Part shown: positions 649 through 58,500 of the stretch, piece by piece
Numbering within the stretch: position 1 is the first letter of the stretch
How the letters are laid out: each line of letters opens with the position of its first letter
Source of the DNA: an uncultured Candidatus Saccharibacteria bacterium
GTDB taxonomy: Bacteria; Patescibacteriota; Minisyncoccia; Minisyncoccales; CAZKCU01
Length of the DNA stretch: 64,000 nt
Direction: 5' to 3'
NCBI GenBank assembly: GCA_964551595.1
Contig: CAZKCU010000001.1
Coordinates: forward strand, 197,321-261,320
Program-made: the position numbers and the translations under genes
Notes under the pieces: generated by a model
Seen by the model: the letters and a program-made list of their open reading frames with translations, nothing else
Database searches by the model: none
What the model was told of the DNA's origin: nothing

Positions 649-1935
649 ATGAATGAATTTCCAAAAAAAATTACAGGTCTAATAGAAATTTCTCCCAAAA
701 TACTTGCTGAAACTCAAAAGAAAATAAAAAATATTTCTGATTTTAAGGAAAAGATTGAAGAGTTTTTGAAAAAGAGTGTTTCGGAAATTTTAGAAATTCT
801 TTTGGGAGGGGGAATAAGTCTCAAGGCCTCTGACATTCACATTGAGCCAGAAGAAAATCAAGCCAAAATCCGAGCCAGAATTGATGGAATCTTACAAGAT
901 GTAATAATTCTTGATTTAAAAACATACCAAACTCTTCTCTCTCGGATTAAGCTTCTTTCTGGAGTTAAATTAAATATTACTGACCGACCCCAGGATGGCC
1001 GGTTTTCTATTCTAATGGAAAAAACAGAAGTTGAAATCAGGGTATCAACCTTGCCGGCTGAGTATGGAGAATCAATTGTCCTGAGAATTTTAAACCCAAA
1101 AGGTTTAATTGAGATTGAGGAATTAGGGGTGAGAAAAGATTTATTAGAAATTTTTAAAAAGGAAATAAAAAGACCGAATGGAATGATTATTGTTACCGGG
1201 CCTACCGGCTGCGGGAAAACTACAACTCTATATGCCTTTTTAAAAAAAATCCAAAAACCAGAGATTAAAATTATAACTATTGAAGACCCTATTGAGTATC
1301 ATTTAAAAGAGATTTCCCAGACTCAGGTGAATGCCGCAAAAGGCTATAATTTTGCCTCAGGCCTCAAATCCATTATGCGCCAAGACCCTGATGTAGTTTT
1401 GGTGGGAGAAATAAGAGACCTGGAAACAGCCAAGATTAGCCTTCAATCAGCCTTAACCGGCCATTTAGTTTTAACTACCTTACACACCAACGATGCTGCT
1501 GGAACCGTGGTCAGGTTGGAAGCCCTGGGAGAAAAACCAGTAAACATTGCTCCAGCAATAAACATGGCTGTTGCCCAAAGATTGGTCAGAAAAGTTTGCC
1601 AGAAATGCGTGAAGTTTGAAAAAATCTCTTCGCCTGATTTTAAAAAAATTAAAAAAATTCTCAAGAAAGTCCCAATTTCGCCTGCCTTAAAAATCCCTCA
1701 AGCTAAAGGATGTAAAGATTGTAATTTTACAGGGTTCAGGGGCCGAATCGGGATTTTTGAGGCTTTTTTAGTTGATAATGAGATGGAAAAATTTATTCTA
1801 ACTTCGCCTTCAATTTCAGCCTTAAGAGAAAAAGCTATAAAAAAAGGAATGCTCACTATGCACCAGGATGGAATAATGAAGGTCCTGGAAGGAATTACTA
1901 CAATTGGAGAAGTAGAAAGAGTAACCGGAGAATAA
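649..1935 (+). CDS. pilB: type IV pilus / type II secretion assembly ATPase (GspE/PilB family)
   Basis: Walker A VTGPTGCGKTTT; GEIRD motif; C-terminal tetracysteine CQKC...CKDC typical of GspE/PilB. Confidence 0.8.
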   Translation: MNEFPKKITGLIEISPKILAETQKKIKNISDFKEKIEEFLKKSVSEILEILLGGGISLKASDIHIEPEENQAKIRARIDGILQDVIILDLKTYQTLLSRIKLLSGVKLNITDRPQDGRFSILMEKTEVEIRVSTLPAEYGESIVLRILNPKGLIEIEELGVRKDLLEIFKKEIKRPNGMIIVTGPTGCGKTTTLYAFLKKIQKPEIKIITIEDPIEYHLKEISQTQVNAAKGYNFASGLKSIMRQDPDVVLVGEIRDLETAKISLQSALTGHLVLTTLHTNDAAGTVVRLEALGEKPVNIAPAINMAVAQRLVRKVCQKCVKFEKISSPDFKKIKKILKKVPISPALKIPQAKGCKDCNFTGFRGRIGIFEAFLVDNEMEKFILTSPSISALREKAIKKGMLTMHQDGIMKVLEGITTIGEVERVTGE

Positions 1936-1937
1936 GA

Positions 1938-1960
1938 ACCTCGCCTTCGGCGAGAACCTT
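1938..1960 (+). terminator. short hairpin after pilB stop (cctcgcc-ttcg-ggcgagg)
   Basis: inverted repeat with tetraloop immediately after the TAA stop; weak T tract. Confidence 0.35.
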
Positions 1961-2152
1961 GACTCGCTAATGTATAAACACTTAGTCTTGAATTAAATTA
2001 ACCCCGAAGATGGGGGCCAATCTTGAGTTTTAGGAACACGAAGTTAGAATTTTTCCGAGGGGTAATTTCGCCGTAGCCAAATTATCCATCTCTGAAAAAT
2101 TCCAGGGGCCCCCATCTTCGGGGTTAATTATAATACTAATTATAAGCGAAGC

Positions 2153-2920
2153 TTGAAATTAGTCGTTTTACTCCTAATTATAACAAGCTATGAGAAATTT
2201 GTCAAGAGTAACGGTTCTCTTTCTTATTTTTTTTGGTTAGGGACGACTGGAATATTTTCAACTAACTTTATTTTTGCTGCAGAAAAAATAGATATTAATA
2301 TCGCTCCCATTGAAGATTTGGTTAAAATTATTCATATAGGAGAAAATAGTGAAAGAGAATTGATTTCTCTAAGGCCTTTCTCTTCTTTAGATGAACTCAC
2401 CAAAATAAAAGGTATAGGCGAAGCGAGGCTTAGGGATATCAGGGAACAGGGTTTGGCGTGGGTCGCCCTTGAGTCTCAGCCAGAATCTCAGCAAGAGCCG
2501 GAACCAAAGCTCCAACAAGAACCGCAAATAGAGACCGGTGTTCTGCAGAGCTATCCAGGAGGAATCATCTTCAATGAAATTCTACCTTCCCCTGAGGGAC
2601 CTGACGCTGAAAACGAATGGATTGAAATTTTTAATCAGAATAATTTTGAAGTTTTGTTTTCTGACTGGAAAATAACTGACACAGTAGGAAAAATTAATAC
2701 TTATTCTCTCCCAAAAAGAACAAAAATTCCTCCTCAGGGGTTTTTAGTTCTTTCTCGGCCAACTACTAAAATTACTTTAAATAATGATGGCGATGGCCTA
2801 AAGCTTATTCAACCTGATGGAAAAAGAGTGGATGAGATAACTTATGAAAAAGCTCCTCGAGGACAATCTTATAACCTTATTAACTCTGATTGGGCCTGGA
2901 ACACGAATTTAACCCCTTGA
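2153..2920 (+). CDS. comEA: ComEA-like helix-hairpin-helix DNA-binding protein fused to a lamin tail domain (LTD)
   Basis: N-terminal hydrophobic segment; HhH region IGEARLRDIREQG; LTD signature IFNEILPSP...NEWIEIFN...FLVL; TTG start inferred. Confidence 0.7.
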   Translation: MKLVVLLLIITSYEKFVKSNGSLSYFFWLGTTGIFSTNFIFAAEKIDINIAPIEDLVKIIHIGENSERELISLRPFSSLDELTKIKGIGEARLRDIREQGLAWVALESQPESQQEPEPKLQQEPQIETGVLQSYPGGIIFNEILPSPEGPDAENEWIEIFNQNNFEVLFSDWKITDTVGKINTYSLPKRTKIPPQGFLVLSRPTTKITLNNDGDGLKLIQPDGKRVDEITYEKAPRGQSYNLINSDWAWNTNLTP

Positions 2921-3214
2921 GCAGCAAATTTCATTCCTTTTGCTCAACCAGAAGAAAAAACAGAGGACGGGCCTCTGAAAGATAAATCTGCTACCGAACC
3001 CGAAACAAAAAGAGAATTAGCAGCCGCAGGTCTACAAATCTCAAAACCCTCAAAGTCTTTATTTATTTTATTAATTGCTTTGGCTATTGCCATTTCCTCG
3101 GGAATAATAATCTTACTTTTAAAAAAGAAACTATCAAGTAGGGTTGATTTATAGAGAAAATTAGAATAAAATAAGATAAGTAAGATAATTATATATAGAA
3201 GAAGGGATAAAAAT

Positions 3215-3946
3215 ATGAGCGGTCATTCTCACGCTAAAAAAATCTTACGAAAAAAACAAATTACCGACGCTCAAAGAGGTAAGGTATTTTCAAAGCTGGC
3301 TCGGATGATTTCAGTTGCTGCCAGAGAAGGTGGTGACCCGGAAACCAATCTTCAGTTACGACGGGCATTAGAAGAGGCTAAGACTTTTGCCTTGCCAAAG
3401 GAGAATATAGAAAGGGCGATAAAACGAGGAACCGGCGAGATTGGTGAAAAAAAATTAGAACAGTTTATTTTCGAGGCTTATGGTCCCGGTGGAATTGCAA
3501 TTATTATTGAAGGAATTACCGATAATAAAAATCGAACTCTGAGCGAAATTAAACAAATTTTAAATCAAAACAATGGAAAACTGGCTGATGCTGGCTCAGT
3601 GAGATGGCTATTTGAAAGAAAGGGTTGTATTATTGTAGATTTAAAATTGCAGATTGAAGATTTTAAAAATAAAGAAGATTTAGAGCTGTTAGCAATTGAA
3701 ACCGGGGCAGAAGATATATATTGGCATAATAATCTTTTAGATGTTTATACAAAAATCGAAGAATTAGAAAAAGTAAAGAAAAATTTGGAAGAAAAAGGAA
3801 TTAAAATTGAATCTGCTTCTTTGGATTGGGTAGCAAAAGAAGAAATTTCTGTTGACATAAAAACAAAAGAGGCCTGTCAAAAACTTTTTGAGACCTTAGA
3901 CGAATCAGAAGCTGTCCAAGATGTTTATTCAAATCTAAAAATATGA
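3215..3946 (+). CDS. yebC: YebC/PmpR family DNA-binding transcriptional regulator
   Basis: 243 aa, MSGHSHAKKI...RGK start is highly characteristic of YebC; stop overlaps ruvC start (ATGA). Confidence 0.85.
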   Translation: MSGHSHAKKILRKKQITDAQRGKVFSKLARMISVAAREGGDPETNLQLRRALEEAKTFALPKENIERAIKRGTGEIGEKKLEQFIFEAYGPGGIAIIIEGITDNKNRTLSEIKQILNQNNGKLADAGSVRWLFERKGCIIVDLKLQIEDFKNKEDLELLAIETGAEDIYWHNNLLDVYTKIEELEKVKKNLEEKGIKIESASLDWVAKEEISVDIKTKEACQKLFETLDESEAVQDVYSNLKI

Positions 3947-4437
3947 TTATTATAGGTATTGACCCGGGCACGGCCCATCTAGGGTATGGCATCATCAAAA
4001 AAACCAAAGGTAAGAAAAATAAACTCAAAGCCATTGATTATGGCTGCATTAAAACTAGCCCAGACTTTTCAGATGGGGACCGTTTAAAGAAAATTAACAA
4101 CGAACTTAATAAGTTAATTAAAAAATATAAACCAAAGATTTTGGCGATTGAGAGTCTTTATTTTTTTAAAAATTTAAAAACAGCACTTCCTGTCAGCCAG
4201 GCCACAGGAGTAATTTTACTTACTGCTGCTAAGAAAAAAATTCCGGTCGTTGAATTTACTCCTCTACAGGTTAAACTTGCAATTACCGGTTATGGAAGAG
4301 CGGAAAAGCAACAAGTCCAAAAAATGGTTAAAATTTTGCTTAATTTAAAAGAAATACCTCAATCCCCCGATGCTGCCGATGCCCTTGGCGTGGCTATTTG
4401 CTGTACAAATTTTCGCAAAAAAGTTCTTAAAGCTTGA
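3943..4437 (+). CDS. ruvC: crossover junction endodeoxyribonuclease RuvC
   Basis: MIIIGIDPGTAHLGYGII catalytic N-terminus; 164 aa. Confidence 0.85.
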   Translation: MIIIGIDPGTAHLGYGIIKKTKGKKNKLKAIDYGCIKTSPDFSDGDRLKKINNELNKLIKKYKPKILAIESLYFFKNLKTALPVSQATGVILLTAAKKKIPVVEFTPLQVKLAITGYGRAEKQQVQKMVKILLNLKEIPQSPDAADALGVAICCTNFRKKVLKA

Positions 4438-4462
4438 CAAGCCTTGTTCAGAAAACTATAAT
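4434..4462 (+). promoter_or_regulatory. sigma70-consensus promoter (TTGACA-17 nt-TATAAT)
   Basis: ttgaca at 4434-4439, 17-nt spacer, tataat at 4457-4462; lies in the ruvC 3' end/intergenic region upstream of the small repeat ORF. Confidence 0.5.
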
Positions 4463-4559
4463 CTTTGTATCCCTTAGAAAATGGCTAATAGAGAGATTGA
4501 AAAGGTCGAAAATAATTGAATAAAAATTAATAAAATTTAATAAAGAGAATTAATCAAAT

Positions 4560-4736
4560 ATGATTTACAAAGAAAAAATTTTAACTCCGGTTGTTAGCCA
4601 AGAACCAGGAACAGTTCCTGAAGGAACTCCTGCAGAAGGAACTCCTGCAGAGGAAACTCCTGCAGAGGAAACTCCTGCTGAAGAAACTCCTGCTGAAGAA
4701 ACTCCTGCAGAAGAAGAAAAGAAAGAGGAAGTTTAG
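4560..4736 (+). CDS. small acidic repeat protein (59 aa) containing six 15-nt tandem repeats encoding (E/G)(G/E)TPA
   Basis: ATG at 4560, TAG at 4734; peptide MIYKEKILTPVVSQEPGTVPEGTPAEGTPAEETPAEETPAEETPAEETPAEEEKKEEV. The track ORF 4591..4791 is the wrong frame of the same repeat. Confidence 0.4.
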   Translation: MIYKEKILTPVVSQEPGTVPEGTPAEGTPAEETPAEETPAEETPAEETPAEEEKKEEV

Positions 4737-4745
4737 GAGTTTTTT

Positions 4746-4773
4746 AAAACCCCGCTTTAAAAAGCGGGGTTTT
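4746..4773. terminator. bidirectional rho-independent terminator (aaaaccccgc-tttaaaaa-gcggggtttt)
   Basis: perfect GC-rich stem flanked by A/T runs, between convergent small ORF (+) and tyrS (-). Confidence 0.7.
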
Positions 4774-4787
4774 AAAAAAACGGGGTC

Positions 4788-5990
4788 TTAATAAATAATC
4801 TTGACGAATTTTCTTTTCCCTATTTGGACAATCTGTCCCTTTTTTATTTCTATAACTTTTTGCCAGTCTTCCTGAGTCTGGCCATCTATTTTCACTCCCT
4901 TTTGAAAAACTAATCTCTTAGCCTCAGCCTTTGATGAGGCTAATTTTATTCTGACTAATAAATCAAGGATATTAAGAAATTTTTCTTTAATTGAAATTTT
5001 TGAAATTTTTGCCGGTATTTTTTTTTCTTTGAAGACGCGATTAAATTCCTCTTCAGATTTTCCCGCTATTTTTTTTCCATAATAAATATTCACAATCTCT
5101 CTGGCCAATCTTGCTTTTAAATCCCGGGGATTTATCTTTTTCCTCTTTAATCCTTCTCTCATCTTTTTAATTTCTTTTATCGTTATCCGGGTTGTTAATT
5201 CAAAATAATCTAAAATTAATTTATCAGGGATTGACATTATCTTCCCATACTGCTCTTCTGGTTTCTCGGTAATACCAATATAATTTCCTAAAGTTTTACT
5301 CATTTTTCTTTGACCATCTAGTCCCACAAGTAAAGGGATAATAACTAAATCTTGCTGAGTCTGGCCCCTTTTCTTTTGTAAGTCTCTACCAGTCAACATA
5401 TTAAATTTTTGGTCTGAGCCCCCAAGCTCTATGTCTGCTCTAATCATAATCGAATCATAGGCCTGCATTAAGGGATAAATTATTTCGTGCACCCCGATAT
5501 TTATTCCCTTTTTTAAGCGTTGGGTAAAGTCATCTCGTTCTAAAATTCTCGCTACCATGAATTTACTGGCCACTTTTAATAAATCTGTCAAATCCATTTT
5601 AGAAAACCACTTACTATTTCTTAAAATTTTAATCTTTTTTATATCTAAAATTTTCCCTATTTGTTTAAAATAGGTCTTAGCGTTCCTCTCTACCTCCTTT
5701 TTAGAAAGAGGAGATCTTATTTTTAATCTCTTTGAAGGGTCTCCAATCATCGCTGTAAAGTCACCAATAATAAAAATTATTTGGTGACCTAAATCCTGAA
5801 ATTCTTTTAATTTTAATAAACAAGCACTGTGTCCCAAATGTAAATCAGGAGCTGAAGGATCTGCTCCATATTTTATTCTGAGCCTCTTACCAGAATGTAA
5901 TTTTTTAATCAGGCTTTCTTCCTCAATAACCTCCTCTACTCCCCGGGTTAAAAGTTCTTCAATTTTTTTAGGGTCAGTATTTACTTTCAT
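4788..5990 (-). CDS. tyrS: tyrosyl-tRNA synthetase
   Basis: 400 aa; class I HLGH and KMSKT motifs; C-terminal S4 RNA-binding domain. Confidence 0.85.
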   Translation of the reverse strand: MKVNTDPKKIEELLTRGVEEVIEEESLIKKLHSGKRLRIKYGADPSAPDLHLGHSACLLKLKEFQDLGHQIIFIIGDFTAMIGDPSKRLKIRSPLSKKEVERNAKTYFKQIGKILDIKKIKILRNSKWFSKMDLTDLLKVASKFMVARILERDDFTQRLKKGINIGVHEIIYPLMQAYDSIMIRADIELGGSDQKFNMLTGRDLQKKRGQTQQDLVIIPLLVGLDGQRKMSKTLGNYIGITEKPEEQYGKIMSIPDKLILDYFELTTRITIKEIKKMREGLKRKKINPRDLKARLAREIVNIYYGKKIAGKSEEEFNRVFKEKKIPAKISKISIKEKFLNILDLLVRIKLASSKAEAKRLVFQKGVKIDGQTQEDWQKVIEIKKGQIVQIGKRKFVKIIY

Positions 5991-6053
5991 ATCTTCATAT
6001 TAAAATAAATTGTAAAAATTGTAAATTTGGCTAAAATTTATTAAGATTAAATT

Positions 6054-7979
6054 ATGCCCCGTAGAAAATTTTATCGAAAAATTTATCAGAAGGCCAAAAA
6101 AGGAAAAAGAAGAAGCAGATTTCTTCTAATTTTAAAATTCTTTGGATATTTTCTTTTATTTTTTGTTTTTATTTCTTTGTTTTTATTTATTTACTATGCT
6201 AAGGACCTTCCCCGCCCGGAAAGATTTACCGAAAAGCCATTTATCCAATCAACTAAAGTTTACGACAAGACAGGGGAAATTCTTCTCTATGACGTTTATG
6301 GCGAAGAAAAAAGAGATGTTGTTTCTTTGGACCAAGTTCCAGAATATTTAAAGGAAGCTGTGATTGTAACTGAAGACGTCAATTTTTATCACCATTTTGG
6401 ATTAGATATTAAGGGAATAATTCGAGCCGTTTTAGCTAATTTGAGAGTGGGTAAAGCAATTTATGGAGGCTCAACTATCAGCCAACAACTTATCCGTTCT
6501 TCTTTCTTAACCAGAGAAAAAACTTTAAAAAGAAAAGTAAGAGAGATTATTTTAACTCTTGAATTAGAAAGAAGATATTCTAAAGATGAAATTTTAGAAT
6601 TTTATTTAAACCAGGTCCCCTTTGGCTCTAACACCTATGGAGTAGAAGCTGCTTGCCAGACTTATTTTAACAAGCCTATCTCTGAAATTTCTTTGTCAGA
6701 AGCTACTATTTTAGTTTCTTTAATCAGGTCCCCGAGTTATCTTTCTCCTTACGGAGAACACAAAGATGAGCTCCTATCTAGAAAAGATTATATCTTAAAC
6801 AAAATGTTAAAAGAAGGATACTTAACTCAAGAAGAGAGAGATAAAGCCAAAGAATCTGAAATAACCTTCGCCAAAATTTTACAGCCAATCCAAGCTCCTC
6901 ATTTTGTAATGTATGTTATGGAATACCTTAAACAAAGATATGGAGAAGATTTTTTAAAAGAAAAAGGGCTTAGGGTTTATACTTCTTTAGATTGGGAACT
7001 CCAGGAATGGGCTGAAAAAGTAATTAAAGAAGGAGGAGAGATTAATAAAAATTACCGAGCTCATAACGCCAGCTTAGTGGTTATTGATCCAAAAACCGGT
7101 CAAATTTTAGCTATGGTGGGATCAATAGATTATTTCGGAGACCCCTTTCCTAAAGATTGCCTGTCAGGAGAAAATTGTTTGTTTGATCCTTATCCTAATG
7201 TTACAATTCGAGGACGCCAGCCAGGCTCTGCTTTTAAACCTTTTGTCTATGCTACCGCTTTTAAAAAGGGTTATGATGATAAAACTGTCGTCATTGACGA
7301 AGAAACTAATTTCGGCACCCCGGCCTACCCTTATATCCCCAGAAATTATGATGGGCTTTTCCGGGGGCAGGTCTCTTTGAGACAGGCTTTGGCTCAATCT
7401 TTGAATGTCCCGTCAATAAAAGTCCTGGCCAATTTTGCCGGTTTACAAGATAGCCTTCAGACTGCTAAGGATTTGGGTATTACTACCTTAACTAAGCCTC
7501 CTTCTTTTTACGGTCTTCCTTTGGTTTTGGGCGGCGGAGAGGTGACTTTATTGGAAATGGTTTCAGCTTATGGAACTTTTGCTACCAAAGGATGGCACGT
7601 TCCCCCGGTCTCTATTTTAAAAATCGAGGATTCTGCTGGAAATATTATTGAGGAGAATAAAAAAACTCCAAAAATGGTCTTGGAGCCGGAAGTTGCTTCC
7701 CTTATTAATGACATTTTATCAGACAATGAAGCCAGAGCTCCTATGTTTGGAAGCAGGTCTTTACTTTATTTTGAAAACTACCAGGTAGCGGCAAAAACTG
7801 GAACGACCCAAAGCTATAAAGACGGTTGGGTAATTGGTTATACTCCTTCAATAGTAGCTGGGGTTTGGGTTGGGAATAACAATAACTCTCCGATGTCAAA
7901 ACAACCAGGGATAGTTTTAGCTGGTCCTATCTGGAGAAGATTTATGGAGAAAGTTCTTTTAAGAGGAACTGAGAACTAA
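6054..7979 (+). CDS. penicillin-binding protein 1A family (bifunctional glycosyltransferase/transpeptidase)
   Basis: N-terminal TM; GT51 motifs EDVNFYHHFGLDIKGI...GGSTISQQL; transpeptidase SxxK-like region; 641 aa. Confidence 0.8.
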   Translation: MPRRKFYRKIYQKAKKGKRRSRFLLILKFFGYFLLFFVFISLFLFIYYAKDLPRPERFTEKPFIQSTKVYDKTGEILLYDVYGEEKRDVVSLDQVPEYLKEAVIVTEDVNFYHHFGLDIKGIIRAVLANLRVGKAIYGGSTISQQLIRSSFLTREKTLKRKVREIILTLELERRYSKDEILEFYLNQVPFGSNTYGVEAACQTYFNKPISEISLSEATILVSLIRSPSYLSPYGEHKDELLSRKDYILNKMLKEGYLTQEERDKAKESEITFAKILQPIQAPHFVMYVMEYLKQRYGEDFLKEKGLRVYTSLDWELQEWAEKVIKEGGEINKNYRAHNASLVVIDPKTGQILAMVGSIDYFGDPFPKDCLSGENCLFDPYPNVTIRGRQPGSAFKPFVYATAFKKGYDDKTVVIDEETNFGTPAYPYIPRNYDGLFRGQVSLRQALAQSLNVPSIKVLANFAGLQDSLQTAKDLGITTLTKPPSFYGLPLVLGGGEVTLLEMVSAYGTFATKGWHVPPVSILKIEDSAGNIIEENKKTPKMVLEPEVASLINDILSDNEARAPMFGSRSLLYFENYQVAAKTGTTQSYKDGWVIGYTPSIVAGVWVGNNNNSPMSKQPGIVLAGPIWRRFMEKVLLRGTEN

Positions 7980-16755: not shown

Positions 16756-17232
16756 ATGACGAAAGAAAAAAAGTTTTATTTAACTAAAGAAGGATTAGAG
16801 AAAATAAAGAAAGAATACAAAGACCTCAAGGCTCTCAAATTTTTGAAAACCAGAGGAGAGATGCCCAAAATTTGGCATTCTGAGGATTTAAATCCTGAAT
16901 ACCTCTCTTTTCAGGAAGATTTAAGTTTTCTAGAAACAAGAATAGCGGAGCTTGAATACATTTTAAAAAATGCGGAATTGATTAAAGCTCCCAAAAAAGA
17001 AAAACAAAATATCATTAATTTAGGGGCTCAGGTAATAGTTGGGGTCGATGATCAAAACGATGAATTTGAAATCGTTGGAACATTAGAGGCCAATCCTGCT
17101 ATTGGTAAAATTTCTAATGAATCGCCAGTTGGGAAAATTCTTTTGGGTCATAAAGTTGGCGATGAGGTTGTTGTATCTTCTCCAATTATGACAACTTATA
17201 AAATAAAGAAAATAAAATATAATATTTCTTAG
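16756..17232 (+). CDS. greA: transcription elongation factor GreA
   Basis: 158 aa; coiled-coil N-terminal domain and FKBP-like C-terminal domain pattern. Confidence 0.8.
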   Translation: MTKEKKFYLTKEGLEKIKKEYKDLKALKFLKTRGEMPKIWHSEDLNPEYLSFQEDLSFLETRIAELEYILKNAELIKAPKKEKQNIINLGAQVIVGVDDQNDEFEIVGTLEANPAIGKISNESPVGKILLGHKVGDEVVVSSPIMTTYKIKKIKYNIS

Positions 17233-19506: not shown

Positions 19507-19535
19507 TTTGTCAAAAAACCAAGGCTTTTTAAGAT
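19498..19535. terminator. bidirectional terminator hairpin (aagccttg-atttgtcaaaaaac-caaggctt + T run)
   Basis: 8-bp stem between convergent DUF1858 gene and RT gene. Confidence 0.55.
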
Positions 19536-20662
19536 ATTCTTTTTTCCAATTTCAGATAATCATCCAGAAGACCTCGCGGCAAGGTATCAATTCTGGCAAA
19601 CCCCATTTGTCCGCGAACCTTCTGCCAGGTTTTTTCATAATCCAGGCCATGGTCTAAAAGCCAGCCAAGATGATGAAGAGAAAGACGCAGTCGCCTTTTA
19701 AAGGTGCGCGTATTGTGAGCTTTTCCTTCAATTACATTCAATCCGAGCATTCTTAAACTGCTTCCCCTTATCATCCTTCTCTCTTTAATCTTGTGAGGCT
19801 CAAATCCATATTTCCTAATTGCTCTTAAAAGGGCAATTTTTACTTTTTGAGGAAATTTTTCTTTTTCTATTGAAAAGAAAAGATTGTCAGCATAACGGGT
19901 ATATTTCCCTTCGGAGTTCTCTACCAGAGATAAAAGCTTCTCATCCAATTTCTTACATATTAAATCAAAAAGTTTTGGGCTGGGCGGTGCTCCTTGAGGA
20001 AGATTTCCCTTAAAGGTGGTGAGTTCAGCTACAATTCTCGCTCCATACCAGGAGAAATAACCATACTCATAGCGGTACTTTTTCTTTTGCTCTGCGGTTT
20101 CATCAGGGCCATAAAGGGCAGGATTCATTTCTGCTTTAAACCGTACCCTTCTTCCTTCAATTAGATATTGAAAGACATCATCAAAATTTACGCTTGGAAA
20201 AGCATCTTCAAAATCAACGCAAAGAATGCTTTTTGCTCCCAAATGAGGATTTATCGCTTCATTAATGCTTCCGCCGGAAAAACCAAATACATTTTTAGCC
20301 GGATTTAAGAAGCTGAGAACATATTTATTAATTTTCCTCTGAATTTTCTTTAAGCGTTCATCGGGAACGCAAACTTTTCTTTTGCCGCCACTTTCTTTTG
20401 GCAGGTATACTACTTTATAAAGGCAATTGCGGTTGCTTCTTATCAATCTTAGAATCTGGATTAAATCATCAGGATGGATTTTTATCTCTTTTGCCAGCCA
20501 AAAGCAGGTAGGTATCTCTCTGGGATTTATCAAGCTTGTTTTTTTAGGCAAAATAGCGTTAAATCTCGCTGTTTCTTCTTCCATTATTGCCCTTTCTATT
20601 AATTCTTCTTTCGCCAATTCCTCCGGAGACTTTTCCGGGAGTATTTCTTCATAGTTTCTCAT
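19529..20662 (-). CDS. reverse transcriptase, retron/Abi/DRT-like (RT domains 1-7, QGxxxSP type; motif C is YADN)
   Basis: RT1 YLPKESGGKRKVCVP; RT2a FGFSGGSINEAINPH; motif A CVDFEDAFPSV; motif B' LPQGAPPSPKLF; motif C RYADNLFFS; RT6 KYGFEPHKIK; RT7 LRMLGLNV; AGGAG RBS 6 nt before ATG. Confidence 0.8.
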   Translation of the reverse strand: MRNYEEILPEKSPEELAKEELIERAIMEEETARFNAILPKKTSLINPREIPTCFWLAKEIKIHPDDLIQILRLIRSNRNCLYKVVYLPKESGGKRKVCVPDERLKKIQRKINKYVLSFLNPAKNVFGFSGGSINEAINPHLGAKSILCVDFEDAFPSVNFDDVFQYLIEGRRVRFKAEMNPALYGPDETAEQKKKYRYEYGYFSWYGARIVAELTTFKGNLPQGAPPSPKLFDLICKKLDEKLLSLVENSEGKYTRYADNLFFSIEKEKFPQKVKIALLRAIRKYGFEPHKIKERRMIRGSSLRMLGLNVIEGKAHNTRTFKRRLRLSLHHLGWLLDHGLDYEKTWQKVRGQMGFARIDTLPRGLLDDYLKLEKRIS

Positions 20663-20960
20663 TAACTGCTCCTTTCATTATTATTTTTAAAAAGAACTGG
20701 GGTTGCCTCTAACTTTAAAAGATATATCTTAAAAGACAACCCCTTGATATTATGGTGGTGTTCCCTCCCTCGCCTTTTGCTGTGAAAAAAGATGCGAAGC
20801 GATACAAAGCTAGTATTCAGAGCTGTCAGATTTCTGACGGCCTGTCTTTTTGAAAAATTTTCAAAGACACTGACGAACCCCACCTTTATTTTAAAATAAC
20901 AAAATAAATCGTTAGTGTCAAAAATGAATAACCTCGGTCCTTAATTGAACCGAGGTTCTT
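20663..20960 (-). ncRNA. structured non-coding leader/ncRNA candidate upstream of RT (retron msr-msd-like or DRT ncRNA-like)
   Basis: ~300 nt without ORF support; TTGACA-like -35 (fwd 20916-20921); several hairpins (ggggttg...caacccc; gtcag-attt-ctgac; gtctttttgaaaa/ttttcaaagac). Confidence 0.35.
20927..20957 (-). terminator. hairpin immediately after stop of ORF 20962..21303 (aacctcggt-N10-accgaggtt)
   Basis: perfect 9-bp stem 4 nt downstream of TAG; followed on the minus strand by attcattttt. Confidence 0.45.
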
Positions 20961-20961
20961 A

Positions 20962-21303
20962 CTAATTGACATACCCATATATAGCTGATACTTTTTCTCT
21001 TTCTTTAGTCATGACTATAATGGTAGTAATAAAATCGGATACCAGAACACGACTTGATTTCGGACGGTCGGGGAACTTGATCCCTAACCTGTAGCCAGCC
21101 TCAATGTCTTGGGATAGAGGTGTGTATCCTAATGCTTTTGGCAAAACACTGCCCAGTAAAACTCCTCGGCCCTCCTTTTTACCGTCGAAATATACTGTCC
21201 TTAATCCTTTCCTGTCGGGGGCTTCAATAACCCAGGTGTGCCCTTCTTCCGTAGATATCACCAATCCATCCTCAATATCTTTCGGCGCTTTATTTATTTC
21301 CAT
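20962..21303 (-). CDS. hypothetical protein (113 aa), immediately upstream of RT on the same strand; candidate RT-associated effector
   Basis: ORF with no recognisable motif; MEINKAPKDIEDGLVISTEEGHTWVIEAPDRKGLRTVYFDGKKEGRG... Confidence 0.4.
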   Translation of the reverse strand: MEINKAPKDIEDGLVISTEEGHTWVIEAPDRKGLRTVYFDGKKEGRGVLLGSVLPKALGYTPLSQDIEAGYRLGIKFPDRPKSSRVLVSDFITTIIVMTKEREKVSAIYGYVN

Positions 21304-21900: not shown

Positions 21901-22527
21901 ATGAAAATCAGCATTAATAAAGTTATTAAAACTTTTATCCTTTCTGACTTTTTTCTTCAATCCGGGTGGGGGTTAATCGGTCCTATTTTTGCTGTGTTTA
22001 TAATAAGAAACATTCACGGCGGAAGTTTGGCAATAGTTGGATTTGTTGCGGCGACTTACTGGATTGTCAAATCAATTTTTCAACCTTTCATTGCCTATTT
22101 TTTTGACCTTAAGAAAGGAGAGAAAGATGATTTTAAATTTCTGATTGTCGGTATGTATATAGCTAACCTAATTCCTCTCGGTTACCTTCTTTCTTCTCAA
22201 ATTTGGCAGATTTTTTTATTAGAATTTATCAGGGGTCTGGCCATGGCCTGCGTTATTCCAACTTGGGCAGGAATTTTCACCAGGCATATAAACAAGGGTT
22301 GGGAAGCATTTTCCTGGAGCGTCGAGAGTACCGCTATTGGTTTTGCCTTTGGTCTTGCCGCTGCTTTCGGCGGGGTAATGGCCACAATTTTAGGATTTAA
22401 AACCGTTTTTGTCTTGGTTTCTGTTTTTGGTTTAATTGCTTCCTCAATTTTGTTATTAATCCGTAATCAAATTTTTCCGAAAGACCACTTTATTCCGCGG
22501 GTACCACCGGCCGAGAAACCATTTTAA
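21901..22527 (+). CDS. multi-pass membrane protein (MFS-half-like, hypothetical)
   Basis: 208 aa; ~6 hydrophobic helices. Confidence 0.35.
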   Translation: MKISINKVIKTFILSDFFLQSGWGLIGPIFAVFIIRNIHGGSLAIVGFVAATYWIVKSIFQPFIAYFFDLKKGEKDDFKFLIVGMYIANLIPLGYLLSSQIWQIFLLEFIRGLAMACVIPTWAGIFTRHINKGWEAFSWSVESTAIGFAFGLAAAFGGVMATILGFKTVFVLVSVFGLIASSILLLIRNQIFPKDHFIPRVPPAEKPF

Positions 22528-22552: not shown

Positions 22553-24265
22553 ATGAAAAATCAGGAAATAGCTAAAATATTATATGAGATAGCTCAATAT
22601 CTTGAGATGGAAGGAGTGTCTTTCAAACCCTATGCCTATGAGAAGGCGGCGCTGACTTTGGAAACCCTGGAGGAAGATATTGAAGAAATTTATAAAAAAG
22701 GGAGAATTAAAGTTCTAAAAGATATTCCTGGAATAGGGAAAAGCATTGCTGAGAAAATTGAAGAATATTTAAAAACCGGAAAGATAAAGTATTACCAAGA
22801 ACTTAAGAGAAAAACTCCCTTGAATATCGGAGAATTAGCAGCTGTGGAGGGAATGGGTCCAAAAAAGGCAAAGGTATTATACCAAAAATTAGGGATTAGA
22901 AATTTAAAAGATTTAGAGAAAGCAGCCAGAGCTCACAAAATTGCTCCTCTCTTCGGTTTTGGGGAAAAAACTGAAAAAAATATCTTGGAGGGGATAGCTT
23001 TTTTAAAGAGAAGCAAAGGAAGGTTTCTTTTAGGAGATATTCTCTCGGTCGTTATGGAAGTTCAGGAAAAATTAAAAAGCCTAAAAGAGGTTGAGGAAAT
23101 AAGTCCGGCAGGTTCAGTTAGAAGAATGAAAGAAACTATTGGCGATGTCGATTTTTTGGTAATTTCCAAAAATCCAGAGAAAGTTATGGATTTTTTTGTT
23201 TCTTTACCCGGAGTGATTAAAATTTGGGGCAAGGGCAAAACTAAATCATCGGTTAAAATGAGAGAAGGTTTCGATATGGATATAAGAGTTGTTCCAAGAA
23301 AAAGTTATGGTTCAGCTCTCCAATACTTTACTGGTTCAAAAGAGCATAATATCGTCACCAGAAAAATTGCCATAGCTAAAGGATTAAAACTGAATGAATA
23401 TGGAGTTTTTCGGGGGAAGAAACAGATTGCTGGGAAAAATGAAGAAGAAGTTTATAAAATCTTAGGGATGGCTTGGATACCTCCTGAATTGAGAGAAAAC
23501 CAGGGCGAAATTGAAGCTGCCCTTGAATGGAAATTACCGAAGTTAATTGATTTTAAAGATATTAAAGGGGATTTACATACTCACTCTAAATGGAATGGAG
23601 GTCATAATTCGATTTTGGAAATGGCCGAAACTGCGATGAGAAGAGGATATAGATATTTGGGAATTACTGACCATACTAAATTTCTAAGAATTGAGCACGG
23701 ATTAGACGAGAAAAAGCTGGCCTTACAAAGAAAAGAAATTGACAAATTAAATCAAAAATTCAAAAATTTCAAAATTCTTCAGGGAGCAGAAACAAACATT
23801 TTGAATGATGGCTTAGTAGATATTAGAGATGAATCCCTAAAAAAGTTAGACTATGCTATTGCTGGAATTCACTCAAATATGAAAATGCCAAAAGAGAAAA
23901 TGACAGAAAGAATTATTCAGGCAATGAAAAATCCCTATATTAAAATAATCTCCCATCCAACCGGCAGAATCTTAAAAAGAAGAAATGAATACCAAATTGA
24001 TTTTGATAAAATTTTGAGAGCGGCTAAAGAAACAGGAACAATTTTAGAAATCAATTCTTTTCCTGAAAGATTAGATTTAAACGACCAGAATATTCGTCGG
24101 GCAAAAGAGGCTGAAGTAAAAATGGTAATCAATACTGACGCCCACCACCTGGACCAAATGAGATTTATTGAATTTGGAATTGCCCAAGCCCGCCGCGGCT
24201 GGGCCGAAAAAAAAGATATAATTAATGTCCAACCATTAGAAAAATTATTAAGGTATTTCAAATAA
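22553..24265 (+). CDS. DNA polymerase X family protein with C-terminal PHP domain (PolX)
   Basis: N-terminal Pol beta-like HhH region; GDVDFLV nucleotidyltransferase motif; C-terminal GDLHTHS...HT PHP motifs; 570 aa. Confidence 0.8.
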   Translation: MKNQEIAKILYEIAQYLEMEGVSFKPYAYEKAALTLETLEEDIEEIYKKGRIKVLKDIPGIGKSIAEKIEEYLKTGKIKYYQELKRKTPLNIGELAAVEGMGPKKAKVLYQKLGIRNLKDLEKAARAHKIAPLFGFGEKTEKNILEGIAFLKRSKGRFLLGDILSVVMEVQEKLKSLKEVEEISPAGSVRRMKETIGDVDFLVISKNPEKVMDFFVSLPGVIKIWGKGKTKSSVKMREGFDMDIRVVPRKSYGSALQYFTGSKEHNIVTRKIAIAKGLKLNEYGVFRGKKQIAGKNEEEVYKILGMAWIPPELRENQGEIEAALEWKLPKLIDFKDIKGDLHTHSKWNGGHNSILEMAETAMRRGYRYLGITDHTKFLRIEHGLDEKKLALQRKEIDKLNQKFKNFKILQGAETNILNDGLVDIRDESLKKLDYAIAGIHSNMKMPKEKMTERIIQAMKNPYIKIISHPTGRILKRRNEYQIDFDKILRAAKETGTILEINSFPERLDLNDQNIRRAKEAEVKMVINTDAHHLDQMRFIEFGIAQARRGWAEKKDIINVQPLEKLLRYFK

Positions 24266-28412: not shown

Positions 28413-28773
28413 TTGTGGAGATGGGGAGACGTGAACTCCCGTCTGAAAGTCCTTTTAAAATATTTCTACAGGTTTTTTCTGCTTTAGTTTTGGAATGCTG
28501 GATATAAAGCAGAAAAAAATTCCAGCATCATAGCCCCTATCTTTTGATAGAACCTTTGAGGCAAAAAGAACTATCTATCTCGATGATATAACACCTGATT
28601 TCACCTATCGAGAATCAGTGATCAGATGGCTCACGGGTTTATGCGTAAGCAGGAGCAAGCTTTGGGCTTGCAAATAAGTTGGCACTTATTATCTTACTAG
28701 AAGTTTTATGAGTTTCTAGTAAACTCAACCTGCATAGTTTAAAAGTTTCTTTCATCAATCCTTTTTCATCCCC
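28413..28773 (-). ncRNA. ssrA: tmRNA (ssrA) candidate, ~361 nt, adjacent to smpB
   Basis: 5' GGGGAUG pairs with 3' CAUCUCC including a G3-U70 wobble (tRNA-Ala identity); T-arm GGGAG-UUCACGU-CUCCC; discriminator A then genomic CAA; putative resume codon GCC at nt 91 and tag ANLFASPKLAPAYA ending at UAA nt 133-135; 5' end overlaps smpB stop. Confidence 0.55.
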
Positions 28774-58416: not shown

Positions 58417-58500
58417 TGCCGGAGGTGGGACTTGAACCCACAAGCCCTTGCGGACAGTAGATTTTGAATCTACCCTGTTTTCCAATTTCAGCACTCCGGC
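58417..58500 (-). tRNA. tRNA-Leu (anticodon CAA), class II with long variable arm; CCA not encoded
   Basis: minus-strand read GCCGGAG...GGTAGA-TTCAAAA-TCTAC...GTCCGCAAGGGCTTGT...GTGGGTTCAAGTCCCAC-CTCCGGC-A; 7-bp acceptor, T-loop GGTTCAAGTCC. Confidence 0.8.

Follow-up and report, generated by a model that had tools for sequence, protein, structure and literature searches.

Retrons have been studied for their part in phage defence and for their use in genome editing, where they serve to write DNA within cells. To our knowledge, all characterised retrons pair a reverse transcriptase (RT) and an RNA with a toxin-like effector. The retron non-coding RNA (ncRNA) is defined by terminal inverted repeats, a branching G, one to three msr hairpins and then the msd, and retron RTs carry two signature motifs, NAXXH between RT2 and RT3 (region X, H most conserved) and VTG in RT7 (region Y, G most conserved) (PMC7736814). 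The defence-associated RT (DRT) systems DRT9 and DRT2 are two-component RT-ncRNA modules in which the ncRNA lies upstream of the RT and there is no effector gene. Reviews describe diversity-generating retroelements (DGRs) as dominant among the RTs of the candidate phyla radiation (CPR), and the literature that we searched held nothing on RTs with the catalytic motif YADN, or on retrons in Patescibacteria, CPR or Saccharibacteria. The present work concerns a 64-kb stretch of DNA from an uncultured Candidatus Saccharibacteria bacterium (the whole stretch, 64,000 nt, is called the window, and all coordinates are given in it), and specifically the interval 20663-20960, read on the minus strand, which lies directly upstream of a gene for an RT with that motif.

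The interval probably holds the promoter and gene of an ncRNA of ~200 nt, which belongs to the retron-class RT downstream as a dedicated partner and works by a retron-type mechanism. The system is most likely an undescribed, effector-less variant of the retron, and what is new is a retron-like RT-RNA module that lacks an effector and has an altered active site. An earlier, sequence-only reading of the interval had left the choice between a retron msr-msd and a DRT ncRNA. Its proposal of an RT-associated ncRNA stands; of the two types the retron is favoured, and signatures like those of DRT2 and DRT9 were tested for and found absent.

A retron-class RT with an altered active site

The RT gene (19529-20662, minus strand) encodes a protein of 377 aa that matches Pfam RVT_1 (6.9e-17). 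The best RT matches in PADLOC were RT_II-A (3.9e-45) and RT_III-A (4.9e-44), with no retron type matched end to end (the match falls into two stretches), and the closest sequence in PDB was the Ec86 RT (1.5e-20). When an AlphaFold model of the RT (predicted local distance difference test, pLDDT, 86.9) was compared with PDB by Foldseek, ranks 1-18 were all retron RTs (Eco2, Ec86, Eco7/Ec78, Ec83 and Eco8), and the RTs of G2L4, group II introns, DRT9, DRT2 and DGRs ranked behind these 18, DRT9 being 21st or lower. By hidden Markov model, by PDB sequence and by fold, the window RT is thus nearest to the RTs of retrons such as Retron-Eco1 (Ec86) and the type II-A St85 retron. On its sequence and predicted fold the RT is retron-class, and it lies outside every curated retron family, its scores being under the curated cut-off of each NCBIfam retron family. 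The best fold match, Retron-Eco2 (Ec67; E = 1.4e-17), is also a system of one protein and one RNA; however, Eco2 is an RT-Toprim fusion with a nuclease effector, whereas the window RT has a helical N-terminal extension of ~35-70 aa and no added domain.

The window RT retains the most conserved residue of each retron signature, H in NAXXH and G in VTG. In region X, NATPH of Ec86 aligns with AINPH; H140 and A136 are found in every one of the 36 aligned sequences, and the N-A dipeptide is lost. In region Y, RKVTGLVI of Ec86 aligns with LRMLGLNV; G307 is invariant, and V-T has become M/x-L. The catalytic YxDD motif is replaced by YADN in all 36 aligned members and in 114 of the 119 nearest homologues. 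The corresponding motif is YADD in Ec86, Kva2 and Ec67, and YxDD was present at 75 of 76 generic retron loci.

Several side observations concern the same protein. Among more distant retron-like RTs (P0128-P0244), motifs of the form xxDN also occur (FADN six times, YTDN and YVDN twice each, YGDN, YSDN and FVDN once each), and loss of the second aspartate may therefore extend beyond the YADN clade within the retron-like RTs. One member, L005 (1101-3119; loci are designated by L numbers), has an RT of 672 aa with an E/K-rich N-terminal extension of ~330 aa, and several other members are 410-510 aa long. The RT frame is split in L008 (3845-5004; 214 + 179 aa) and in L015 (3941-4932; 110 + 186 aa), while the upstream RNA is intact in both; the split reflects either a frameshift (gene decay) or an assembly error.

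Promoter and anatomy of the RNA

Read 5' to 3' on the minus strand, the interval consists of a terminator-like hairpin belonging to an upstream open reading frame (ORF), a promoter, a structured stretch of ~200 nt, a Shine-Dalgarno sequence and the RT ATG. The promoter, proposed earlier from a TTGACA and a TATTTT hexamer ~17 nt apart, is a sigma-70-type site at 20893-20921 (minus strand), with its -35 box TTGACA at 20921-20916, a spacer of 17 nt and an extended -10, TGtTATTTT, in which the -10 hexamer is at 20898-20893; it matches at 10 of 12 positions and has the extended TG in addition. It is unchanged across six close relatives, in which conservation of the leader starts at the -35 box. In about 20 of 24 family loci the promoter match ends 16-19 nt ahead of an invariant G (below), and this spacing puts the predicted start of transcription at ~20886, the foot of a helix designated P1. 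Promoter position, fold and conservation together indicate an ncRNA gene of ~200 nt from about 20886 to 20689 on the minus strand. Its 3' end lies ~25 nt ahead of the RT start codon (ATG, 20662-20660), and the ribosome-binding site that had been pointed out there is AAGGAG at 20674-20669. RNA and RT are contiguous and on the same strand in all family loci, and the position of the ncRNA gene directly upstream of the RT on the same strand is that of a retron.

As a separate observation, the 17-nt promoter spacer (20899-20915, minus strand; CTAACGATTTATTTTGT) is invariant in the six relatives, whose RTs are 67-77% identical. It is conserved above most of the RNA body, which suggests a bound regulator or some other overlapping function.

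The predicted fold is far more stable than expected by chance. The minimum free energy (MFE) of 20663-20900 is -67.3 kcal/mol, against -47.1 +/- 4.1 kcal/mol for 200 dinucleotide shuffles (z = -4.87), and none of the 200 shuffles was as good. The RNA begins with P1, a terminal helix of 10 bp that joins the 5' end to a segment 120 nt downstream and closes over two hairpins, P2 and P3, and a variable segment. Its 5' strand, the a1-like arm, is GGUGGGGUUC (20884-20875), and it pairs with the a2-like arm GAACACCACC (20763-20754), ahead of which there is a conserved G (a G-GAG motif). The check for inverted a1/a2 repeats suggested in the sequence-only reading is answered by this helix, and directly 3' of its 5' strand is the invariant G, G20874, the candidate branching (priming) guanosine. 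G20874 is invariant in the alignments of close-relative leaders and was found as CUC-G, UUC-G, CAC-G or CUU-G in 24 of the 24 loci inspected. P1, G20874, the terminator-like hairpin of the upstream ORF, and the U-tract and the placement of the long hairpin outside P1 (both below) are elements that the earlier reading did not contain.

Two other pairings were considered as terminal repeats and rejected. A 27-nt repeat (20902-20876 with 20704-20678) overlaps the -10 box; among the six close relatives the AU-rich core of the repeat shows 94% pairing, with one compensatory pair and a duplex z of about -2.5, and this is lineage-specific, since in distant members z is ~0 while P1 holds everywhere. 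The pairing of GGGGUU (20881-20876) with AACCCC (20704-20699) was rejected because its 5' copy is altered without compensation in L103 and L108, and it is a local hairpin that covaries instead.

The stem-loops named in the sequence-only reading are all present. P2 (20868-20844; gtctttttgaaaa/ttttcaaagac), the first msr-like stem-loop, is identified by fold and covariation and varies in both sequence and length, from ~20 to ~90 nt across the family. The second, P3 (20842-20821; GGCCGUCAGAAAUCUGACAGCU, with gtcag-attt-ctgac and GUCAGAAnUCUGAC), is near-invariant, with the family consensus GGCUGUCAGAAUUCUGACGGC, and is a probable recognition element for the RT. Both L009 and L012 (GUCGGAAUUCGGAC) carry a G.G mismatch in place of A-U at the fourth base pair of P3, the change being identical at the two loci, and at L027 the same pair is a G-U intermediate.

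Between P3 and the 3' strand of P1 is a hypervariable segment of 57 nt (20820-20764), which contains a small hairpin and the motif CGCnnCUU and is the candidate, msd-like, template. Its length is held at ~47-65 nt across the family, its sequence and local folds differ from member to member, and the CGCnnCUU motif is conserved ~25-35 nt 5' of the P1 3' strand. Beyond P1 and a 10-nt linker is a long hairpin with G+C-rich ends (20743-20699; GGGGUUGUC...GAGGCAACCCC, the ggggttg...caacccc stem of the earlier reading), whose loop and inner stem vary in length among close relatives. It is followed by a U-rich tract, GUUCUUUUU (20697-20689), conserved across the family with the consensus GYWCUUUUAAAA. 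Its place beyond P1 and the U-tract after it make this hairpin look like a terminator rather than an msd stem. Seven U residues (U7) come after the equivalent hairpin at L009 and L012, which makes it a canonical intrinsic terminator there; L013 has no 3' hairpin and keeps P1-P3. In local MFE folds the U-tract pairs with the Shine-Dalgarno sequence AAAGGAG, over 10 bp in the window and in most relatives as well, and this predicted pairing is weak (-3 to -9 kcal/mol).

Conservation and covariation of the RNA

The RNA was present upstream of the RT at all 32 related loci examined, at RT identities down to ~30%. The sequence-only reading would have been undermined by homologous RT loci that lack a conserved upstream segment; the opposite was found at every family locus examined. 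A MAFFT alignment of six close leaders (syntenic loci with RTs 67-77% identical) showed the stretch between the -35 box and the start codon to be conserved almost throughout, and an nhmmer profile of the leader matched just upstream of the RT at loci whose RTs are 31-52% identical. The motif GUCAGAAnUCUGA occurs upstream of the RT at 26 of 27 family loci, and the 27th, L019, has a variant that retains GAGAAUUCU. With a covariance model derived from these six leaders, full-length matches were obtained in L001-L008, L014, L015 and L024-L026.

Ordinary retron loci were used as the negative control (76 of 80 loci from a metagenome scan with a generic second peptide pattern). The covariance model of the leader found no match among 34 ordinary retron loci, and the nhmmer profile likewise gave none at generic retron loci. 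Among the 76 further retron loci, the sole YADN locus (L027) was also the sole one with a P3-type hairpin, and no P3-type hairpin was found upstream of the RT at any of the 75 YxDD loci. As far as these sequences go, the P3-type RNA and the YADN RT clade always go together.

Covariation in homologous loci, another check that had been proposed, was found in all of the helices. RNAalifold applied to a sequence-only alignment gave four helices. In a 40-row alignment made with the covariance model, 95.8% of cells were paired, a percentage that is inflated by the fitting of the alignment to the structure of the model, against 38-49% when partners were slid by one to three columns. Changes on both sides were seen in 32 of 38 pairs, against 11-22 in the slid controls, and none of 500 shuffles reached the observed values. 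Double changes were found in nine of the nine modelled pairs of P1, in all pairs of P2 (6 + 3), and in 11 of 11 pairs of the long 3' hairpin. Because the alignment had been fitted to the structure, P1 was retested on sequence anchors alone, a single CTCG upstream and a GAG 47-58 nt past P3. At 12 distant loci, six or seven of seven further positions could pair, and the P1 sequences of distant loci differ (GCUGCUC/GAGCAGC, GCUACUC/GAGUGGC, CUACUGCUC/GAGUAGUAG). Some of the pairs in P3 and P1 are G-U, which would be A-C mismatches on the other strand, and the RNA is therefore placed on the RT-sense strand.

On the RT strand, the leader matched none of the 4227 Rfam models, not even with E allowed to reach 10; at gathering thresholds, a search of the 64-kb window with Rfam returned only tmRNA and tRNA. 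The ORF overlapping the leader, judged spurious in the sequence-only reading, is a single 73-aa GTG frame (20662-20883), and indels of 1, 2 and 4 nt occur within it among close relatives. These indels break the frame, so the 73-aa ORF is not a conserved coding frame.

Distribution, neighbourhood and the search for an effector

The RT family is almost wholly metagenomic. It comprises 196 proteins at E <= 1e-10, with 67 cluster representatives at 50% identity at E <= 1e-30, and the species-representative genomes hold 22 RT loci, mostly in metagenome-assembled genomes (MAGs) of Patescibacteria. These Patescibacteria belong to Paceibacterota, Saccharibacteria, Falkowbacteria, Moranbacteria, Doudnabacteria, Nealsonbacteria and WWE3. 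In the six close relatives the RT occupies the same chromosomal place, between yjbQ-MFS-PolX and DUF1858-PGI-HD-GreA. The RT (67-77% identity) has diverged about as much as its neighbours YjbQ (66-72%), HD (64-66%) and PGI (78-80%), which, as a comparison of sequences, points to vertical inheritance of the RT among housekeeping genes. At L008, in a MAG labelled Saccharibacteria, GreA, MFS and PolX surround the RT at 68-74% identity in another gene order, which suggests that its organism and that of the window are related. Separately we note that PolX (a DNA polymerase beta-like protein with a PHP domain), MFS and GreA all lie near the RT, at 22553-24265, 21901-22527 and 16756-17232 (plus strand) in the window and within 1471-6785 at L008; the RT-PolX neighbourhood seems to be old.

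The neighbours of the RT are housekeeping genes (cysS, PolX, GreA, PGI and similar). Two neighbouring genes were considered as effectors and rejected. A downstream gene of ~470 aa, present at five loci, has HIGH and KMSKS-type motifs on reading its sequence and is a cysteinyl-tRNA synthetase. The other, an ORF of 113 aa (ORF113; 20962-21303, minus strand), stands between the RNA gene and yjbQ. It has just seven homologues, none of them outside the lineage of the window; the window, L023, L106 and L108 carry the ORF, and L103 and L104 lack it. Its divergence is faster than that of the RT (42% identity in L023, against 77% for the RT); it has no family match in PADLOC, Pfam or NCBIfam, and it gave an unusable AlphaFold model (pLDDT 45.5). 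Its single-lineage distribution, its absence in L103 and L104, its own promoter and terminator, and the lack of a family match led us to reject it as an effector. A phage origin was likewise rejected: the viral contigs gave one match to the P3 pattern (L116), which had neither a covariance-model match nor an RT.

Comparison with retrons and weighing of alternatives

The RNA of the window resembles a retron ncRNA in having a terminal inverted repeat, an abutting invariant G, two msr-like hairpins and, ahead of the 3' arm, a segment that evolves fast. This arrangement, with the 5' end of the transcript at the terminal helix, is the layout of a retron msr-msd. The module differs from described retrons in several further respects: a terminator-like hairpin stands between RNA and RT, so that one more hairpin follows the a2-like arm on its 3' side, and the RT sits among housekeeping genes, is vertically inherited, has hosts that are mostly Patescibacteria, and is accompanied by an RNA that has no Rfam match.

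A number of observations weigh against assignment to the retrons. The window RT has AINPH for NAXXH, MLG for VTG and YADN for YADD, and it falls under the cut-offs of all curated families, with the nearest, NCBIfam retron_St85_RT, at 151.6 bits (2.7e-44) against a cut-off of 235; with its catalytic motif changed, the enzyme may use a different chemistry. Within the closing helix there is no long stable msd stem, the variable segment forming short, non-homologous hairpins of -5 to -19 kcal/mol, and the long stable hairpin of the RNA lies outside P1. The putative branching G is able to pair with an opposite C in L010 and L014. The inflated pairing percentage of the 40-row alignment belongs here as well. 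Finally, clustering of ORFs across 32 loci revealed no family-wide gene besides the RT, and the clade has neither an effector gene nor a fused effector domain, unlike characterised retrons, which are tripartite.

An alternative is an RT-ncRNA system resembling DRT9, DRT10 or DRT2, in which the RNA is scaffold and template, priming is by protein or de novo, and a repetitive or homopolymeric DNA is itself the effector. We regard this as unlikely, though it is the strongest of the alternatives. It would account for the missing effector gene; the conserved module consists only of RT and ncRNA, as in DRT9 (PMC12483538, PMC12489045); the altered motif YADN is invariant in the clade; and CGCnnCUU(UU) together with a second U-rich stretch at the 3' end loosely recalls the U-rich template and 3' U-rich region of DRT9. 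However, the RT is retron-class and not of the UG/Abi class to which the RTs of DRT9 and DRT2 belong: the NCBIfam Drt2 model gave 24.5 bits (cut-off 390) against the 151.6 bits of retron St85, and the DRT9 and DRT2 structures came below 18 retron RTs in the fold search. A universally conserved U-tract template of the DRT9 kind was rejected, as the internal U-run of the window lineage is replaced by CUUC, CUAU, CUAC or GC-rich sequence at six other loci (L001, L005, L008, L024, L025 and L026). The never-ending ORF of DRT2 was rejected also; in most members each of the six concatemer frames is interrupted by stops, no frame free of them is conserved, and the unit lengths are not divisible by three. 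P1 and its adjacent G have the priming geometry of a retron and are without counterpart in DRT9 and DRT2, as far as these are described in PMC12483538.

A leader acting only in cis, as an attenuator or an autoregulatory, RT-binding 5' untranslated region with a terminator and an anti-Shine-Dalgarno, and serving as neither template nor primer, is more improbable still. The terminator-like hairpin and U-tract between promoter and RT, the lack of a separate RT promoter, and the ability of the U-tract to pair with the Shine-Dalgarno in most members would all fit such a leader. But it would have no need of a closing helix at the 5' end next to an invariant G, of a P3 that is invariant across RTs 30% identical, or of a hypervariable insert of constrained length. 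Moreover, the loss of the 3' hairpin from L013 with P1-P3 still in place, the weakness of the Shine-Dalgarno pairing, and the use of a cognate ncRNA by every characterised retron-class RT (PMC7736814) all speak against regulation in cis as the whole function. It is hardly credible that the interval is a protein-coding region, or that it encodes a small RNA of its own with no relation to the RT. The 73-codon ORF does exist, and conservation of the DNA gives similar ORFs in L023 and L110. Nevertheless, indels among close relatives shift its frame, the substitutions compensate RNA pairing and not codons, and no protein-family match was found; the indels and the substitution pattern exclude a coding function. 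As for an independent small RNA, the element is always immediately upstream of an RT of the YADN clade, and is found only there.

Proposed mechanism and implications

For the retron-type RT-RNA pair favoured here, the following scheme is proposed. The RT would bind P3 and P2. The P1 duplex would bring the 2'-OH of G20874 to face the template base G20764, next to the P1 3' strand on its 5' side, as in retrons, and on this analogy G20874 would prime the synthesis of multicopy single-stranded DNA (msDNA) by the module, with 20764-20820 as the putative template. The hypervariable segment would be copied by the RT into a short single-stranded DNA of at most ~57 nt, which would remain joined to the RNA. 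Most transcripts would end at the 3' hairpin and U-tract, giving an excess of free RNA, and the RT mRNA would come from read-through only, its Shine-Dalgarno perhaps partly masked by the U-tract. The ribonucleoprotein (RNP) or its DNA product would act alone or with a factor encoded elsewhere.

A more specific proposal, which we offer tentatively and with some doubt, is that the module is an ancient, vertically inherited, effector-less RNP of Patescibacteria-type bacteria, in which the YADN RT and the RNA yield a DNA product or an RNA-bound activity with a cellular or self-contained antiviral role, rather than toxin-antitoxin abortive infection. If true, retrons would include a lineage whose output or function is new. 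The clade keeps a clearly retron-shaped RNA without the context of an effector, and is marked by YADN, a built-in terminator and a fixed housekeeping position in reduced genomes. It raises the question of what role a retron has when there is no toxin to guard. The clade is also a natural test of the second YxDD aspartate in 2'-OH-primed synthesis, and a compact, well-delimited template RNA with a hypervariable insert of constrained length is attractive for engineering.

Flanking features

The terminator-like hairpin of ORF113 (AACCTCGGTTC...GAACCGAGGTT, followed by ATTCATTTTT; 20957-20930, minus strand) has 11 pairs, six of them G-C, and then a T-run. It is kept in L023 and L108, and is separate from the RT-associated RNA. 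The promoter-like site of ORF113, TTGACA-17-TAGAAT (21411-21383, minus strand), matches at 11 of 12 positions.

A complementarity was noted between the -10 box region (20901-20887, minus strand) and the A/U-rich tail past the 3' hairpin (20696-20678). It comprises 14 pairs, 94% paired, with one compensatory change among the six close relatives, and is absent in distant members; such a pairing would be relevant only if a transcript began upstream of the mapped promoter. Elsewhere in the window are a tmRNA gene (28413-28773, minus strand; 113 bits) and a tRNA gene (58417-58500, minus strand).

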